Part shown: positions 5,649-64,000 of the stretch, piece by piece
How positions within the stretch are numbered: position 1 is the first letter of the stretch
Layout of the letters: each line of letters starts with the position of its first letter
Assembly (NCBI GenBank): GCA_047600465.1
Contig: JASGKU010000004.1
Location: 490,445-554,444 of the forward strand
DNA: 64,000 nucleotides
Direction of reading: 5' to 3'
Source: Agriterribacter sp.
Lineage (GTDB): Bacteria > Bacteroidota > Bacteroidia > Chitinophagales > Chitinophagaceae
Program-made: the position numbers and the translations under genes
The notes under the pieces: model-generated
Told to the model about the DNA's origin: nothing
The model's input: the letters and a program-made list of their open reading frames with translations, nothing else
Databases searched by the model: none

Positions 5649-5801
5649 TCATGAACTCCATCCTATTTTATAGAACACAAACAGTAATAATAGTCCGGTT
5701 CCGATCGATATTAAAATGTTGAGGCGGTTGTCTAATATCCACTCCCAGGATGTTCTTGTTTTATCATCTACATATTCCGAATCTTCATTTGTTAGTGGCA
5801 T
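5649..5801 (-). CDS. Small 50-aa putative membrane protein (below the ORF-track cutoff)
   Basis: MPLTNEDSEYVDDKTRTSWEWILDNRLNILISIGTGLLLLFVFYKIGWSS, with an AT-rich leader and one hydrophobic segment. Confidence 0.45.
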   Translation of the reverse strand: MPLTNEDSEYVDDKTRTSWEWILDNRLNILISIGTGLLLLFVFYKIGWSS

Positions 5802-6049
5802 GATTTATATTTAATTCTTTATTTACAATTGCGAGCTTCGAGTCGATTAGAATAAGGTAGACGCTTCCTGACAAATAAATATAATACAGATAATTATAAG
5901 TTTTGAGCTTTCAACACAAAATTGATATTTGAAAACTTTTCCCGTAGGACTTAATCGGTAGAAGGATATGTGTTATAAAACCAAGATGGAATGGTCAAAT
6001 CATATCATAAATGGTGTTCCGTCTATCTTCTTTTAGTTTCCACTAGTCA

Positions 6050-6119
6050 CAAAAAACCCTTCAAAAAATTGAAGGGTTATCAAACTGCTATAGAAAACTA
6101 AACCAGCCACTCAAATATA
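6050..6119 (-). ncRNA. Putative mini sRNA unit (promoter + TTTTCTATAG motif + terminator hairpin)
   Basis: TATATTTG box, then GGTTTAGTTTTCTATAGCAG, then an ACCCTTCAA/TTGAAGGGT stem and T-tract; no ORF. Confidence 0.45.
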
Positions 6120-6333
6120 TTCAAAATAGTCGAAAACTTTCCATGGCATCACCAGCAGTCTGACTGTCTGATATTAAATTGACGGTTTCGATTTATATGA
6201 AACCTTAATGAAAATACAGTTAGATTATCCTATTGTAAAAGTTCTTGGAATGATTGTGCTGGATAATGAGATCCGTAGACGAAAATAAGGGCCGTGCAGC
6301 ACTTAAGGTGCTCCCCGGCTATCATTACAATGG

Positions 6334-6777
6334 CTATTTTTTCGGCTTCTGAAGAAACCCCTGCTCTTTAATATTCTTCATCCATTGATTCGCAAAATTG
6401 CAGTGTCCTTTCTGCCAAGCTTTGATAATGGTAAACTTTCCGCCTTCTATAGAAACACTTTCTTCATAAAGCCCGAGATTGTCCTGCCGGTACATCTGCG
6501 GATAGACTTCCATTAAATGATAGTCTCGCGGATCACCGCGTTTATCAATGACGAAAAAACACATTTCCGGATCGCGCATGAGGTCGCCATTTTGTGTGTA
6601 GGTGTGACTAAGACTGTAGAGATTTGCGGCTCCGTATGGTGTTGTAATATCATTAGCAATACATTCTACAGAGAGCGGCATAAATCCATCTGATGATAAC
6701 CGGATATACACTTCGTCTTTTAGTTTACTTAGTAAGTGACAAAATATTTTTGTTGCCCGTTGATTTAATTTTTGCAT
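6334..6777 (-). CDS. DUF6908/DUF1249-like mobile-element protein
   Basis: FMPLSVE...YSLSHTYTQNGDLMRDPEMCF...FANQWMKNIKEQGF motifs. Confidence 0.7.
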   Translation of the reverse strand: MQKLNQRATKIFCHLLSKLKDEVYIRLSSDGFMPLSVECIANDITTPYGAANLYSLSHTYTQNGDLMRDPEMCFFVIDKRGDPRDYHLMEVYPQMYRQDNLGLYEESVSIEGGKFTIIKAWQKGHCNFANQWMKNIKEQGFLQKPKK

Positions 6778-7814: not shown

Positions 7815-8195
7815 CTAGTGAGGAACAAAATTTCTCAGCAATAAAAAACTATAAGTAGTAATAAGCATATAGAGCAACCAGCGGAGGATTGTTCCATAAT
7901 ATTCCTTCGCCTGATGCTCTGGGAAGAATAAATATCGTTTCTCGTATGTCAACTGCTTCGGTTGCTGCGCTATGATTTTTTTTATTTCTTCCGTATATGT
8001 CCGCATGATGATGTGCATCTGAGCACCGTCTATGCCTGACTGCTGCGATTGCAATCCATCCAGTCGCTTATCAAAATCTTTTACAGTCCTGGTTAATTCC
8101 CCCACAGCTTTTTGTAAGGCATTTGCTTCCTTATTGTACGCCGACTGCTCAGACAGTATTTCATTCAACAGGATTTTTATTTCTTCATCTTCCAT
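7815..8195 (-). CDS. Coiled-coil membrane-anchored hypothetical protein downstream of the relaxase
   Basis: Heptad-rich N-terminus, C-terminal hydrophobic helix, positioned in the mob operon. Confidence 0.7.
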   Translation of the reverse strand: MEDEEIKILLNEILSEQSAYNKEANALQKAVGELTRTVKDFDKRLDGLQSQQSGIDGAQMHIIMRTYTEEIKKIIAQQPKQLTYEKRYLFFPEHQAKEYYGTILRWLLYMLITTYSFLLLRNFVPH

Positions 8196-8221
8196 TCACG
8201 TATCGTTTATCGTTTAAAAAT

Positions 8222-9262
8222 TTAAGGTCGCGGCTTTTTCTTCCGGCGTCTTTTTATTTCCTCTTTTGTAAGTTCCTGGTTAATGCTCTGTTGTTCTCCT
8301 GCGTCACTACCCGTGAGAACATCCAATGCTTTTTGTATCAGGCTTCCAGGCTTCGAAGTGCCTTTATCTTCAAGTTGGATGTCCTTAGTGATTGTCGGCG
8401 ATTGCTTTTTGTCAGCTTGTCCGGGTACAGCTGCTGAATCAGATGATGCCTTATGCTGTTCAGCCGGTCCTATTTTTCTAACAGCGCTCATCTCCATTTG
8501 CTGTAACACATTTTTTTTCTGACCTGGGTTTAACTGCAGGATCCTTTCGATCACGCTCAAAGAAAATCGAACCGCACTTCCTTTCGTATACACTTTTTGC
8601 GGGTCCCGGAAAGCGATGCCCCTGGATTTGATTACTTCATATTGTAATTGTTTCATTTTTTGTTCAAACGCCTCATAGGTATTTGATGTCCCAAGGCTTT
8701 GAATAATATCTTTTTTCAATTGCTCTTTTCGCCTGTCCCGTCTCAATATATCTCGCTGCTCTTTTGATAAAAACTTTTTCGGATTCAGCACTTTTTGAAG
8801 TCCATACTTTGTTTCCATGCGGCGGCAACAGTCAGCCATCCTTTTATAATTATTGCTATCGCTTAGGGTTTTGCCGTTAAATCCAACACGGTTTACGATA
8901 ATATGAAGGTGCTGATGACTGGTATCGGTATGCTCGACTGCAATAAACTGGTGCTTGTCAAAGTCCATTTCCTTTGCAAAGTCTTCCACTAGTTCCGTGA
9001 GTTGATGAGCAGGTAATTTTTCATTGGGTGCAAAACTCAGCGTGATATGCTGTACAGGGTTTGACAACTTTTTATTTAGTTGTCTCACCTCACTGAATTG
9101 TTTGATCAGTTCTCTTTCATTACCAAAGCATTGATTGAAGAGTAGTATTTCAGCTCTGCTTTTTATAAGCTGCCCAGGTTTGTTTTTATTTTCGAGCTTA
9201 TCATTCAGACAATATTTAATACAGCCGCTGAAAGATTTGCCGGTAATAATCTTTCCGATCAT
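8222..9262 (-). CDS. Relaxase/mobilisation nuclease (MOBP/VirD2-like)
   Basis: MIGKIITGKSF..IKY, HITLSF, HTDTSHQHLHIIVNRV (HUH motif). Confidence 0.93.
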   Translation of the reverse strand: MIGKIITGKSFSGCIKYCLNDKLENKNKPGQLIKSRAEILLFNQCFGNERELIKQFSEVRQLNKKLSNPVQHITLSFAPNEKLPAHQLTELVEDFAKEMDFDKHQFIAVEHTDTSHQHLHIIVNRVGFNGKTLSDSNNYKRMADCCRRMETKYGLQKVLNPKKFLSKEQRDILRRDRRKEQLKKDIIQSLGTSNTYEAFEQKMKQLQYEVIKSRGIAFRDPQKVYTKGSAVRFSLSVIERILQLNPGQKKNVLQQMEMSAVRKIGPAEQHKASSDSAAVPGQADKKQSPTITKDIQLEDKGTSKPGSLIQKALDVLTGSDAGEQQSINQELTKEEIKRRRKKKPRP

Positions 9263-11239: not shown

Positions 11240-11388
11240 AAGCCCACTGCCTTCCGGCAGAAAATGTTTAATCTCTTATACGGGGTCTTGTATGCCCCAA
11301 TCTGAAACAGGATGAGCCAGAAGAACCAGACTACTGCAAATGAACTTTTTATCCATTGCCAGCTTAGGTTTTGCTGCAAAGGGCTATA
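11240..11388 (-). ncRNA. Putative IS110 bridge RNA
   Basis: ~150 nt non-coding end closed by an AGCCC/GGGCT stem, with internal hairpins GGGGCATACAAGACCCC and CTGCCGGAAGGCAG, preceded by a TAAATTTG box. Confidence 0.6.
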
Positions 11389-11763
11389 CTCCAAATTTAC
11401 CCAATTGAAACAATGAATTTCGTCAGGGTCTTACCAGAGTTATTCTCCGCAGAAAGATCAGCCCGCCTGATTTGGAAGACTCCTGCAATTCAAAAAGCCT
11501 GTCTGTATTACTATCTTCATCTTTTACGAAAACTGGATCTGTATTTACAAAACAGCAAACTTCCTCTATAGCTTATGATGGCTTTACCCGGTACAAGATT
11601 TTGGCTTCTCATCAACAGGTTTCATCACACATATATTTTCTACCGAAAAGATATTATATCAATACTTGCTATCAAACCTGTATTGTTGATTTTAACGGGC
11701 ATCCATCTTGCAATAACATTATTCAGCTCATGCAAAAATGGCAGCAGCCGTTAATTGTAAATG

Positions 11764-12138
11764 TTATCTCAAAGCTTCGCGGTTAAAAATGTTGATGTCA
11801 TTGATAGGATGTGCGCGAAGTTTATCCTTTAAGTCCATCCAAAGCCTGATATTATAATCGGCAATCTCCTCGAGTTCTTGTCTGGTTAGCCGGTGAGGAT
11901 TTGATACAACCGCAGAAGGTTTTTTCATGATTTTGGGTTTTGTAGTTTTTAAATCAGTGATGTCTTTTACTGGATCAACACTTAAATCTTCTACTACTTG
12001 CTCTTCAAAAAAAGAAAATATGTTGGGTGCAGCGCCTTCGCCGATTTCAAGCGCGCTGTTAATGGCAAGGCTATTGCCAAAAAGTTTGATTTGTTTACCT
12101 GTGCTGAGTTGAAGGGTTCTTCTTTTTAATGCTGCCAT
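11764..12138 (-). CDS. Hypothetical mobile-element protein
   Basis: Intact 124-aa ORF directly downstream of the HTH gene. Confidence 0.7.
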   Translation of the reverse strand: MAALKRRTLQLSTGKQIKLFGNSLAINSALEIGEGAAPNIFSFFEEQVVEDLSVDPVKDITDLKTTKPKIMKKPSAVVSNPHRLTRQELEEIADYNIRLWMDLKDKLRAHPINDINIFNREALR

Positions 12139-12187
12139 GAATAATTTATTTTAATTGTTGTAAATCGGATTAATGTAGGGGAAGGAA

Positions 12188-59537: not shown

Positions 59538-59622
59538 AGTAGACCCAAAAGTAGACCTAAAAAAGTAATCAACTGATTTTCAGATAGGAACGGTCGGAAT
59601 GAACTATCCCGTCCGGTCCGCA
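59538..59622 (+). mobile_element. Putative attR: tRNA-Asp-like 3' end with arm-type direct repeats
   Basis: TCCCGTCCGGTCCGCA (59607-59622) resembles the 3' T-stem/acceptor of tRNA-Asp; AGTAGACC occurs at 59538 and 59550; no complete tRNA upstream. Confidence 0.65.
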
Positions 59623-60224: not shown

Positions 60225-60542
60225 TTAAAAGAAACCATTCATTTTTATCATATTGTCGAGATTGTCTTCCACCGTTGCATCTTTTACAGTTCGTAAAAAC
60301 TCCTTATTGCCTTCTTTAACTATTATGACATTTGCTCCCCTTTTCCAAGAAGCGGTTTGGTAGCTCCATTTCAAGGTCATTATAGTGTTATTTGCTTTTA
60401 ATAACTGTATTACTGCTGCTTCAGGAGTTTTTTTTCCAGCATTAAAACCTGTAGAAGTATTTAAATGGAGAAACACATCTGTAATCACTCCGGCATCTGT
60501 TTTCCATACACCTGTGATAAAATAATTGGGAGGTACTGCCAT
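60225..60542 (-). CDS. DUF3892-like protein, last gene of the CBASS operon
   Basis: YFITGVW...ITDVFLH...GANV.IV.....EFLRTVKDATVEDNLDNM. Confidence 0.75.
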   Translation of the reverse strand: MAVPPNYFITGVWKTDAGVITDVFLHLNTSTGFNAGKKTPEAAVIQLLKANNTIMTLKWSYQTASWKRGANVIIVKEGNKEFLRTVKDATVEDNLDNMIKMNGFF

Positions 60543-60560
60543 AAACTATAATTTTTACAA

Positions 60561-61637
60561 TTATTGATTGAATATTTCTTTGATATACCTGGGATTTTCC
60601 TCGATTCTCTCTATATCAGTAAATAACTGCTCAGCTAAATAATTCCTTTGTGAACTGCTTAATTTTGAATTAAGGTTATTGTTTGAGTTTGTAACATCTA
60701 AATAATTACTTTGTTGTATTCTTTTTGCAATAAAGTTCATACTGTTTAGCAAATTTTCAGTATCAGAGAAATGCACACCAAACCGGTTATCTGAAAGGGC
60801 ATCAACAACACATTGGTCAATAATTACACTGGGTAATTCTATTCCGTTTCTTACTTTATATGTTTTCAAAAGTTTTACCACTCTTCTGGCCTCAGGTTTA
60901 TTTACTGTAATAGTTTTCTGTACACCAATATTTGTTTTAAAAGAGCTTCCCTTTTGCCAAACCCAATCTGGCCTTACATATAAATTAAGTTCCTTAGTAA
61001 TCTTATAATCGCCAAATTCTCTGCCTGGTACAATATCAAAATGTATGGGAAGTCCATTATGTTCAAATGTTAATCCTATTGCCTTTGTTTGTTTACTTAC
61101 AATAGCTTTATTTCCAAATTGTGCTTGCAAGCAATCATACACATCATAATACATTTCTTCAAGAGTAGAATAACTGTTATTCCTGAACGCTAATACTATA
61201 TCTAAATCAGTATTGGAAGCAATAGCTGTACGTTTAAAAAATGAACCGGCATCTTCTGCTTTACAGATAAGCCTTGATTCAAATTTCCTATTCAGCCATT
61301 CTTTAATATCAGCCTTGTGTGAAAGATATTTTTTCAGTAGCAGTGGGTCCGACTTCAAATCCTCTTCAGACAACACTTTCTTTAAATATTCATCAGAATT
61401 AAAAGGATGTTTGGCTTCTTCAGATAATTTAGCCTCATAGGATAAATATCCAACTCCAGTACCAATTGCACCACCAATAAGAGCATTTTTGAATGTGCGT
61501 TTACCGTTATAAGATTCCCAGGTAAAAGGTTTCTTATCCAGCAAGTGTTCCAACCATTGTAATATGATATCAGCACCAGCTGTACCAGCAAACCCGATTA
61601 AAGCCCATTTTGTAATATATTGTTCTCTTCTTCTCAT
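60561..61637 (-). CDS. Second Pol-beta/SMODS-like nucleotidyltransferase with hydrophobic, Gly-rich N-terminus
   Basis: GSFFKRTAI...DLDIV, KQTKAIG, FDIVPG; N-terminal WALIGFAGTAG and ALIGGAIGTGVGYL segments. Confidence 0.85.
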   Translation of the reverse strand: MRRREQYITKWALIGFAGTAGADIILQWLEHLLDKKPFTWESYNGKRTFKNALIGGAIGTGVGYLSYEAKLSEEAKHPFNSDEYLKKVLSEEDLKSDPLLLKKYLSHKADIKEWLNRKFESRLICKAEDAGSFFKRTAIASNTDLDIVLAFRNNSYSTLEEMYYDVYDCLQAQFGNKAIVSKQTKAIGLTFEHNGLPIHFDIVPGREFGDYKITKELNLYVRPDWVWQKGSSFKTNIGVQKTITVNKPEARRVVKLLKTYKVRNGIELPSVIIDQCVVDALSDNRFGVHFSDTENLLNSMNFIAKRIQQSNYLDVTNSNNNLNSKLSSSQRNYLAEQLFTDIERIEENPRYIKEIFNQ

Positions 61638-61640
61638 AAC

Positions 61641-62501
61641 TTATTCGGTTGAGTATTTTTCATTAACTGCCCATTTTGTGTGTGCTCCAATTTCGTATTC
61701 CACTTCCTTTTCCCTTTCATTAAATCCTAATGAGTTGATAATAATTTCATCTGCCCATTTTATTTGCTCAGTATTGCCGTTTAAATACAATCGATTAAGA
61801 ACTTCAATTTGCTCATCATTGGGTATCAAATCAAAGATCTCAAAGATTAATATCTCCTGGCAATTCAGATTCTTTGCTTTTTGCATAGGTGTTTGAATTG
61901 TCTTAACATATTTATAGTCGATATATCTGAATGCATGTTTATCTGCTTTTTGTTCAATAATGTTGGAGGTAAGTAATTCTTCACAAAACTCACGCCATTG
62001 AGAAGTTTCTCTATCTTCTCGTGAATTAAACCATCTTATAATCTTTAATACAAATCTTCCGGGTAAACGAAAGCGTAAGTCATTTTTTGCAATCCCATGT
62101 TCTGTTTCAAATCTCTTATCAGGTTTAACTTTATACTTTTTAAAGACTTTCTCTACTCCTGGCAATGTTTTATAAGCTCCGCCAACCAACTGGTAATAGT
62201 TCCCTTTTCTATTTTTAACCAGAAGATACTTCCCGTTACTTTTAATTCGAAACAAATAGGAAATAGAAAGGCGTACATCTTGATTTCTATATAAAGTATT
62301 GGTTTTAAATATTAAGGGCAAGTTTTTTAAATTGTAAATACCCTCTACTATTCCAACATATATCGGAGTAGTAATTATGTTAATAGCTATTGCGATAAGT
62401 GCAGCCGGCAAAGGCTTGCTTGCGTCTTTGTAAACAAGAGTGTAACCAATTAATGCAACACCGGCTAAGAAAACCATTATTTCTGCATATTGTCTTTTCA
62501 T
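61641..62501 (-). CDS. 2TM + SMODS-associated NUDIX CBASS effector (Cap16-like)
   Basis: Two N-terminal TM helices; RLSISYLFRIK..GKYLLV...YQLVGGAYK...DLR...WF...RE...WREFCEEL. Confidence 0.8.
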   Translation of the reverse strand: MKRQYAEIMVFLAGVALIGYTLVYKDASKPLPAALIAIAINIITTPIYVGIVEGIYNLKNLPLIFKTNTLYRNQDVRLSISYLFRIKSNGKYLLVKNRKGNYYQLVGGAYKTLPGVEKVFKKYKVKPDKRFETEHGIAKNDLRFRLPGRFVLKIIRWFNSREDRETSQWREFCEELLTSNIIEQKADKHAFRYIDYKYVKTIQTPMQKAKNLNCQEILIFEIFDLIPNDEQIEVLNRLYLNGNTEQIKWADEIIINSLGFNEREKEVEYEIGAHTKWAVNEKYSTE

Positions 62502-63388
62502 ATGATTTTAGGACTTGGCTTTACTTTTGTAATTACATTTTTAAGTACTTCAAAAGATAATGGTTTGTCAGGAAAACTTTCAGCAATAGCTTCAGGTAGT
62601 ATTTTCAAGGCAAGGTCAGAATATGAGTACCCTAAACCTTCGTTTTTGGATGGCCCCGTAAGTTTAACGAGTTCGTTAAGTTCTGCACTTTGGATATGTA
62701 TTCCTTCAAGTGTTTTGACAAAAAATTCCTTCCTGTCATCATCATCGGGCCGTTCAAACTCCATAATTATGGCAGCTCTTCTTAGAATTGCTTCATCAAT
62801 AAAGTGTAACCGGTTAGTTGACATAAAAATAATTGCCCGGCCATTCAAAGCCCTGATTTCATCAATTTTTTGAATCAATGTATTGACAGCAGCTTTTTCC
62901 TCTTGATGCATTTGGTTTGTTGACCTTGTAGTAGCAATCGCATCTGCTTCATCAATAAATAAAAAAGCAATTCTTTTCTTACCAGCCTCTTGCTTTAATC
63001 TGTCAAAAGCATTATTCACAAGGCTTCCCATTTGTCCATGTAAGCCTTCACCACGAACCCTTGTACTTAATTTCAGAAAAAACCCTTCCTTACCTAATTC
63101 ACGAATCATTCTATCTGCGATACCTTCTGCTGACACGGTTTTCCCTGTACCGGCATCACCGGCCAATAACACAAGTGGGTACCTGTCAAGTATTGTATCT
63201 AATACAGGTAATTTAATTTTATGATGCTTTTTACTCCATTCAATTAATCCTTCCTGGTCAATTAATAGTTTAAGATTGTTGTGCACCCTTTCGAATCTTT
63301 TTTGAAACCCAATTAATGCATCAGCCCGTTTTTTTACATCTGAATTGGGCAACTCAATAATATTGTCAAAAATAGTTGTGTTGTTCAT
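62498..63388 (-). CDS. cap6: TRIP13/Pch2-like AAA+ ATPase of type III CBASS
   Basis: PLVLLAGDAGTGKT, VRGEGLHGQM, IDEADAIA..R...QMHQEEKAAVN, STNR...DEAILRRAA. Confidence 0.9.
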   Translation of the reverse strand: MNNTTIFDNIIELPNSDVKKRADALIGFQKRFERVHNNLKLLIDQEGLIEWSKKHHKIKLPVLDTILDRYPLVLLAGDAGTGKTVSAEGIADRMIRELGKEGFFLKLSTRVRGEGLHGQMGSLVNNAFDRLKQEAGKKRIAFLFIDEADAIATTRSTNQMHQEEKAAVNTLIQKIDEIRALNGRAIIFMSTNRLHFIDEAILRRAAIIMEFERPDDDDRKEFFVKTLEGIHIQSAELNELVKLTGPSKNEGLGYSYSDLALKILPEAIAESFPDKPLSFEVLKNVITKVKPSPKII

Positions 63389-63394
63389 GTTGGA

Positions 63395-63907
63395 TTACTT
63401 GTAATTTGTTTTACTTAATTCGTAACCATTACTGGCAAAAGTCTGAGCAGTTTGCCTAGATAAGTTTGGGAAGCTATTGTCAATATGCGATGTTGTCCAT
63501 CCAATTCTAAAGTCATTTGATTGTTGAAAGTTCTCTTTCTGTTGCTGTGTAAGAGAATGCCATGAACTAGTATAACTAAGAATAACAGACAACTCAGTGC
63601 TAGACAGATTCTGCCAGTCATTACCACCAGCTCTATCACCTGTAATAGAAGTACCTGCATCGTTTACAGTGTATTTAGCGGCACGTATAGGTTGGTTACT
63701 TGTATTTAATAAAACGATGTCAACAGTTTTTAGGTATTTTGCCTCAGCTAACTTTATTATGTCGTGGAATACCTTGTCAACATACTCTGTTGACCATTTT
63801 TCAGTACGTTTGGCAATCATTCTTAAATCTGCTTCAAAACCTTCAAAAGTTTTACGTATATCAACTACTGTATAGGTTGAAGTTGCTATGTAAGTGTTGT
63901 AACTCAT
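63395..63907 (-). CDS. cap7: Bacterial HORMA domain protein
   Basis: N-terminal STYT, ADLRMI, YL..V, LSYTSSW..LT..QK, C-terminal TFASNGYELSK; directly upstream of the TRIP13-like ATPase. Confidence 0.8.
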   Translation of the reverse strand: MSYNTYIATSTYTVVDIRKTFEGFEADLRMIAKRTEKWSTEYVDKVFHDIIKLAEAKYLKTVDIVLLNTSNQPIRAAKYTVNDAGTSITGDRAGGNDWQNLSSTELSVILSYTSSWHSLTQQQKENFQQSNDFRIGWTTSHIDNSFPNLSRQTAQTFASNGYELSKTNYK

Positions 63908-63909
63908 AA

Positions 63910-64000
63910 TCAATCTTCTGTTTTAATATTAAAAGAAGAACCAAAAACAAATTTCCATTCCTCTATAGTATCTCCTTCGTAATTTTTTGACTGTGCAATG
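63910..64000 (-). CDS. C-terminus of the probable CBASS CD-NTase (truncated by the window)
   Basis: Reads IAQSKNYEGDTIEEWKFVFGSSFNIKTED*; WxxVFGxxF is the typical CD-NTase tail; abuts the HORMA start. Confidence 0.7.
   Translation of the reverse strand, partial: IAQSKNYEGDTIEEWKFVFGSSFNIKTED

Follow-up and report, generated by a model that had tools for sequence, protein, structure and literature searches.

The window analysed here is a stretch of 64,000 nt from Agriterribacter sp. (GCA_047600465.1, contig JASGKU010000004.1, 490,445-554,444 of the forward strand), at the end of which lies a minus-strand operon of CBASS, a system for antiphage signalling based on cyclic oligonucleotides; besides its primary cyclase, the operon carries a second nucleotidyltransferase akin to cGAS and DncV (a CD-NTase), hereafter NT2, which is a real and conserved CBASS accessory, apparently uncharacterised and broader than a type III framing would allow. 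The operon was followed past the window end in its own genome (G000:C4; locus L001, in extended coordinates), and its genes, named from profile searches with Pfam, PADLOC and NCBIfam, run in the order DUF2188, CdnC-like cyclase, HORMA, TRIP13, 2TM-NUDIX, NT2 and DUF3892 (Table 1); the labels CdnG-like, E2-type and Cap16-like used below combine PADLOC and Pfam matches with what we take to be the usual nomenclature. The profiles bear out every gene that the first-pass annotation had assigned within the window, from the end of a CD-NTase to a DUF3892-like gene, together with the tight coupling it described: TRIP13 and NUDIX share an ATGA overlap, and 3 bp separate NUDIX from NT2; the gap between NT2 and DUF3892 is 18 bp. 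The GC content of the operon is 33-35%, against 39% for the genome. A promoter and terminator scan gave results at chance level, and there were no RNA data from a carrier among the sequencing runs listed.

Table 1. Features of the CBASS operon; positions are those of the window, with coordinates beyond its end given for the extended locus.
Feature	Position	Strand	Extended coordinates	Basis and remarks
DUF2188 gene, 76 aa, heading the operon from just beyond the window end			L001:7353-7583	PF09954 6.8e-25
Primary CdnC-like CD-NTase, 323 aa, last 30 codons inside the window	63910..64000	minus	L001:6355-7326 (up to 64881 extended)	phmmer to E. coli CdnC 6p80 E 3.4e-24; PADLOC PDLC00808 5.5e-100
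Bacterial HORMA (bacHORMA_1)	63395..63907	minus		Pfam 2.8e-47; ATG 63907, alternative TTG 63913
TRIP13/Pch2-like AAA+ ATPase, 296 aa	62498..63388	minus		PADLOC 9e-113
2TM-Sa_NUDIX effector (Cap16-like), 286 aa, two transmembrane segments	61641..62501	minus		Pfam 1.5e-63; PADLOC 2TM effector 1e-101
NT2, hairpin-bearing second CD-NTase, 358 aa, without C-terminal tail	60561..61637	minus		PADLOC PDLC00803 1.7e-51
Helical hairpin at the N-terminus of NT2, residues 1-76, with helices at 3-33 and 45-76	61410..61637	minus		Q27 and G55-G59-G63 conserved
DUF3892 gene, 105 aa, loosely linked passenger	60225..60542	minus		Pfam 8.6e-7, above cut-off

A CD-NTase, HORMA, TRIP13 and an effector lie within this one operon, as in type III CBASS, and since the solved structure nearest to the primary cyclase is E. 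coli CdnC (E 3.4e-24), the first four core genes are those of an ordinary type III system with a Cap16-type effector, alike in identity and order to CdnC-HORMA-Trip13 of E. coli MS115-1 (6p80/6p8v) combined with a Cap16-type 2TM-NUDIX; HORMA/TRIP13 regulation and Cap16 are understood here as in the available part of a review (PMC10419184). What differs from that system is the extra CD-NTase of another clade, with its N-terminal hairpin, and the flanking DUF2188 and DUF3892 genes. The canonical type III layout has one cyclase per operon, whereas two CD-NTases of different PADLOC families (PDLC00808 and PDLC00803) are present here.

Residues 78-358 of NT2 form a complete CD-NTase, with the Pol-beta nucleotidyltransferase (NTase) domain and helical C-lobe, in the AlphaFold2 model (mean predicted local distance difference test score, pLDDT, 88). 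The model aligns to B. fragilis CdnB (7ljo) with Z 24.6 and an rmsd of 2.5 across 263 residues, and to P. aeruginosa CdnD (6p82) with Z 24.1, and the top Foldseek matches are CdnD, cGLR, CdnC and CdnB; the best profile is the PADLOC cyclase PDLC00803 (E 1.7e-51). Other models score below their cut-offs (Pfam SMODS, 18.9 bits against 26.5; NCBIfam CBASS cyclase models, 19-43 bits against 150-200), and the core, 29-33% identical to soluble members of PDLC00803, belongs to that family or is its sister. The full catalytic set noticed earlier is in place (G131-S132, D144, D146 and D201). Two word-index searches, from each of which the best 120 of 184 matches were taken, define two subfamilies, a and b, which share no more than about 30% identity in a subsample, and the GS motif and three aspartates are kept in 118/118 proteins of subfamily a and 119/119 of subfamily b (237/237 among the listed proteins of at least 330 aa). 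NT2 is under purifying selection, with a dN/dS of 0.077-0.101 between the window gene and four close homologues and similar values for hairpin and core (0.07-0.10 in both), which rules out a pseudogene or a chance open reading frame. Sequence and model together indicate that NT2 is a conserved, intact-looking CD-NTase, with predicted activity.

NT2 differs from the soluble members of PDLC00803, which serve as primary cyclases and, where linked to Cap2/E2, have a tail of about 32 residues, in that it has gained a hairpin, lost the tail and become a secondary gene. Among the homologues listed, the NT2 chain extends beyond the core by a median of 2 residues, whereas the tails of 15 soluble sisters span 27-35 residues (median 32), 11 of the 15 ending in Gly; the last residue of NT2 family members is G or A in only 4/117 and 10/117 of the homologues among the matches listed. 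NT2 is therefore without the flexible tail, ending in Gly or Ala, of type II cyclases conjugated by Cap2/E2. Because that tail is the Cap2 conjugation handle of type II cyclases, according to the available part of the report on them (PMC11153139), its loss uncouples NT2 from Cap2/E2. No second copy of the hairpin was found in its own genome, and in the ESM Atlas the hairpin had no match and whole NT2 matched above 0.9 only its own unnamed cluster. A separate observation on this family concerns L099, where two PDLC00803-like NTases (5796-6632 and 11388-12179), one of which looks catalytically degenerate, lie in a duplicated gene context that is not CBASS.

Residues 1-76 were modelled as two helices (pLDDT 93) with a basic N-terminus, and the hairpin is conserved, with an invariant Q27, a GxxxGxxxG zipper formed by G55, G59 and G63, and the polar pair Q27/D23. 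The two Gly-rich hydrophobic segments of the first-pass annotation thus exist, but they are only marginally hydrophobic, the best 19-residue Kyte-Doolittle (KD) means being 1.30 and 0.77 in the window NT2, compared with 1.87 and 2.15 for the transmembrane segments of the adjoining NUDIX. Beside the 2TM effectors Cap14/15/16, this predicted two-helix hairpin has median values of 1.86/0.82 in subfamily a (113 proteins) and 1.25/1.41 in subfamily b (116 proteins); given such marginal hydrophobicity, membrane association of NT2, as judged from the model, is plausible only. A profile hidden Markov model of the hairpin, searched against 1.84 billion representatives, gave 89 matches, of which 52 are full-length, all with the NTase core, 35 short and 2 long; the short ones (12 with part of the core, 23 without) look like truncated or frameshifted family members, and the two long, repetitive ones appear spurious. 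The hairpin-CD-NTase family comprises at least 52 clusters at 50% identity. Since its matches carry the NTase core or look like family fragments, the hairpin appears to be specific to the NT2 family; a domain shared with other proteins is unsupported by this search, and a fold search with the hairpin gave nothing significant (best Z 7.7; Foldseek E >= 1.5).

The gene neighbourhood was surveyed in 66 large loci, the window's own included, of which 55 hold a hairpin-NTase (52 after removal of three duplicates at 97%); the other 11 consist of two fragments missing the N-terminus and nine loci with soluble relatives only. One of the 52 is uninformative, and several contigs show only part of the CBASS core. 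A CBASS core adjoins NT2 in 50/51 informative loci (32 E2-type, 10 Cap2/Cap3, that is Cap2/JAB, and 8 type III), an intact NT2 in L008 being the sole orphan. An ordinary effector is visible in 43/52 loci (NUDIX in 33, NucC in 8, NARF in 2), with none visible in 9. Downstream sequence of at least 600 bp is available for 45 loci, and in all of these but L036, L042 and L098 (42/45) the CBASS genes end with NT2; because no gene consistently follows it in these 45, NT2 has no effector of its own. NT2 is accordingly not a type III extension: it is appended to several CBASS types, and the type III extension in six-gene order that the first-pass annotation had put forward does not hold, since only 8/52 loci are type III and only 3/52, with NT2 copies 88-92% identical, show that order, which also rules out a conserved six-gene subtype. 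Of the two genes expected to accompany CBASS in other genomes, NT2 does so, but DUF3892 lies directly downstream of NT2 in only 4/45 loci and anywhere near in 5/35; an obligatory pair is ruled out, and DUF3892 is a separate defence-associated passenger. An exclusive link with NUDIX is likewise ruled out, as subfamily b is found with NucC and NARF.

The first gene is DUF2188 in 19 of the 35 loci with long flanks, and no conserved extra gene was found beside NT2 in the surveyed loci, the identified neighbours being CBASS core genes, DUF2188 and DUF3892. Both DUF families had already been tied to defence in the part available of one preprint (10.1101/2022.04.27.489752), and an excerpt of another proposes a dsRBD/HPF-like sensor fold for DUF3892 (10.1101/2025.01.14.632903). 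Several other arrangements were observed at these loci. A TM-NARF occupies the effector slot of type I/II CBASS with PDLC00803 cyclases at L049:2990-3742, L042:4224-5006, L075:4592-5359 and L101:5816-6568. An AAA ATPase and an S8 peptidase form an IetAS-like pair directly upstream of the CBASS cassette at L002:2650-6109 and L003:3504-6942. A divergent three-gene block with an IrrE/M78 metallopeptidase, resembling CapH/CapP-type regulators, stands upstream of DUF2188 at L007:5514-7220 and in L017, L019, L023 and L025. Just upstream of the present operon, beyond the window, a two-gene toxin-antitoxin-like pair (L001:8020-9467) consists of a 119-aa gene without Pfam match and an MqsA-like HTH-SocA/Panacea antitoxin; the pair also precedes the type III loci L005 and L006, and the antitoxin is present in L032.

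Comparison of related loci indicates that the partners of NT2 are exchangeable. DNA similarity between the window locus and L003 is limited to the DUF2188 upstream region (65504-64900, extended) and NT2 (61639-60571); between the two, L003 has a NUDIX (33% identical), a CdnG-like cyclase and E2 in place of CdnC-HORMA-TRIP13-NUDIX, and L004 shows the same pattern. In an independent case, the type III locus L023 and the E2-type loci L016 and L019 have flanks and NT2 in common (91.6% identity for L016) and differ in their cores, so the whole core between DUF2188 and NT2 has been swapped at least twice, and the DUF2188...NT2 frame acts as a cassette hotspot for CBASS cores. The primary cyclases beside NT2 are unrelated (CdnC-like, CdnG-like and soluble PDLC00803). 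A quick tree of the NT2 core domain with 47 hairpin forms implies 7 changes of CBASS type, 6 of cyclase class and 3 of effector class; the data are compatible with one origin for every hairpin form (approximately unbiased test, p 0.71), L049 and L098 being long branches. Subfamily a goes with NUDIX and subfamily b mostly with NucC, a concordance that is suggestive only because the sequences are related.

Among 401 genomes of the family, 11 match the NT2 profile, all with the hairpin form, and of the 10 in the same sample that hold Sa_NUDIX, 6 have NT2 and 4 lack it. Three of the latter are NUDIX/CdnG-like/E2 operons, one having a cyclase that shares 76% identity with the cyclase of L011, where NT2 is present; the fourth is a type IV-like locus that includes a UG13b reverse transcriptase. 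As related NUDIX operons lack it, NT2 is an accessory, an optional last gene. Matches in the phylum, order and class samples number 4/401, 7/401 and 10/396 genomes, soluble-only forms included. The named relatives belong to Chitinophagaceae and other Bacteroidota; no hairpin form outside Bacteroidota occurs among named records, other phyla not having been systematically searched. IMG/VR contigs and GenBank phages held no NT2 relative, and a plasmid search gave one partial match only (28%). Two further observations were made in passing: L112:1980-7464 joins a type IV-like CBASS (QueC, TGT, cyclase, OGG) to a 2TM-Sa_NUDIX and a UG13b reverse transcriptase in one gene run, and window positions 59607-59622 repeat the 3' end of tRNA-Asp(GTC) at G000:C4:441648-441723, some 108 kb off, probably as the right attachment site of an integrated element just outside which the CBASS operon lies.

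In full-text searching of the literature, the portions of the sources that were available described no hairpin-bearing second CD-NTase, and the tables of the founding CBASS surveys may already list the architecture. Two systems come close. Panoptes (OptS mCpol with OptE S-2TM-beta), as presented in the accessible part of PMC12657218, likewise places a second nucleotide synthase and a membrane element beside CBASS, but NT2 has the CD-NTase rather than the mCpol fold, its putative membrane element is fused to the synthase, and it has no dedicated S-2TM-beta, CARF or SAVED partner; repressive signalling of the Panoptes kind would be hypothetical for NT2. In B. cereus, a type II CBASS cyclase that is conjugated to PspA has a membrane association such as is predicted for NT2, and provides a precedent for membrane partition of a CBASS cyclase, as far as the sections available of PMC11153139 tell; there, however, the cyclase is membrane-associated in part only, and it is Cap2 that joins it to PspA by way of the tail, whereas NT2 is tail-less with a fused, genetically encoded hairpin.

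NT2 is intact, selected, tail-less, effector-less, added to complete operons and indifferent to their regulator, and for these reasons a second input to the resident effector is the simplest reading: NT2 may be a membrane-associated second sensor cyclase that feeds the existing effector of the operon, to which we assign a probability of about 0.45. The Gly-zipper hairpin would hold NT2 in or on the inner membrane, where the presumably active enzyme, triggered by a predicted phage cue of its own, would make a cyclic nucleotide that activates the resident effector, 2TM-NUDIX here and NucC in the sister subfamily; with two parallel inputs, a phage evading the HORMA- or Cap2/E2-controlled cyclase would still trigger defence. 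Of the four mechanisms offered by the first-pass annotation, the one in best agreement with these data is a second or membrane-sensing cyclase. L096 represents another type of two-cyclase CBASS: a hairpin-less 262-aa PDLC00803 cyclase (8153-8941) follows NucC there as the final gene of a type II operon, in the position that NT2 has elsewhere, and shares 46% identity with the one cyclase visible in the NucC operon L100, which supports the pattern of a second input. Several findings weigh on the other side. The window hairpin is below the usual transmembrane hydrophobicity, and helix 2 never reaches a KD value of 1.6 in the 113 subfamily-a proteins; the effector concordance amounts to only 3 changes among related sequences; and NT2 copies 81-92% identical occur with unrelated cyclases and with NUDIX proteins that share only some 33% identity, which means that a single NT2 product would need to act on either NUDIX type. 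In L098:4945-8528, moreover, a distant hairpin-NTase stands at the front, ahead of a soluble cyclase and Cap2, and neither a JAB nor an effector was recognised, an arrangement that fits an effector role better.

The main rival, unlikely but the best of the alternatives, applies the Panoptes logic within one polypeptide: NT2 would be a self-contained guard in which a nucleotide made or retained by the core renders the hairpin of the same protein harmless, until a phage anti-CBASS sponge or nuclease removes the nucleotide, or a phage protein binds the core, and the Gly-zipper hairpins damage the membrane. The independence of NT2 from the core, the missing partner gene, the conserved zipper and polar Q27/D23, the lack of another effector in L098 and the intact orphan of L008 would all suit such a guard, as would the frequent position of Panoptes beside CBASS as its guard (available part of PMC12657218), and a decoy would track the signal class of the effector just as well. 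NT2 is, however, almost never alone (1/51 informative loci), and fragments with the hairpin only or with part of the core are many, some apparently frameshifted (23/35 short matches without core), a weak objection since these may be assembly errors. Less probable again is a relay or regulator, in which NT2 converts, amplifies or removes the primary signal, or nucleotidylates a membrane protein or RNA target after the first signal; the intact catalytic set and the nearly obligate association with complete CBASS loci that already have a cyclase agree with it, but NT2 is kept across unrelated primary cyclases, the products of which probably differ, and sister operons do without it. It is improbable, too, that NT2 is a second effector, with the NTase fold as receptor of the primary signal and a membrane-disrupting hairpin in the manner of Cap14/15/16: two N-terminal helices on a nucleotide-binding domain and the effector slot held in L098 recall this design, yet the catalytic triad, invariant among the listed proteins, is more than a pure receptor should need and disfavours a dead NTase receptor, near-identical NT2 copies pair with different cyclases, and almost every locus has an ordinary effector besides. 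Least probable of all is a two-gene Panoptes logic, in which NT2 constitutively makes a decoy nucleotide repressing a shared effector, with NUDIX or NucC as OptE; the subfamilies do follow effector class and Panoptes is a precedent (same source, in part), but loss of a repressor should be toxic, and therefore the three NT2-less NUDIX/CdnG-like/E2 operons, including the one akin to L011, and the interrupted NT2 copies of L009 and L013 (possibly sequencing errors) count against it.

Natural controls exist in which near-identical NT2 stands before different cores (the window against L003/L004; L023 against L016/L019) or related operons occur with and without NT2 (L011 against L113), so the dual-input and guard models are directly testable. 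On a further, rather doubtful reading, the hairpin-CD-NTase would be an undescribed, portable class of CBASS module in Bacteroidota, a single membrane-bound polypeptide that keeps its place at the locus end while entire CBASS cores are exchanged before it; in the boldest version it would be a one-gene guard that unites synthase and membrane effector and fires upon phage attack on CBASS signalling. The finding bears on two open questions, the sensing of infection by CD-NTases and the bacterial response to phage sponges and nucleases; a tail-less hairpin cyclase carried by E2-type and type II as well as type III operons would represent a new kind of regulatory input, one not covered by the type I-IV scheme.

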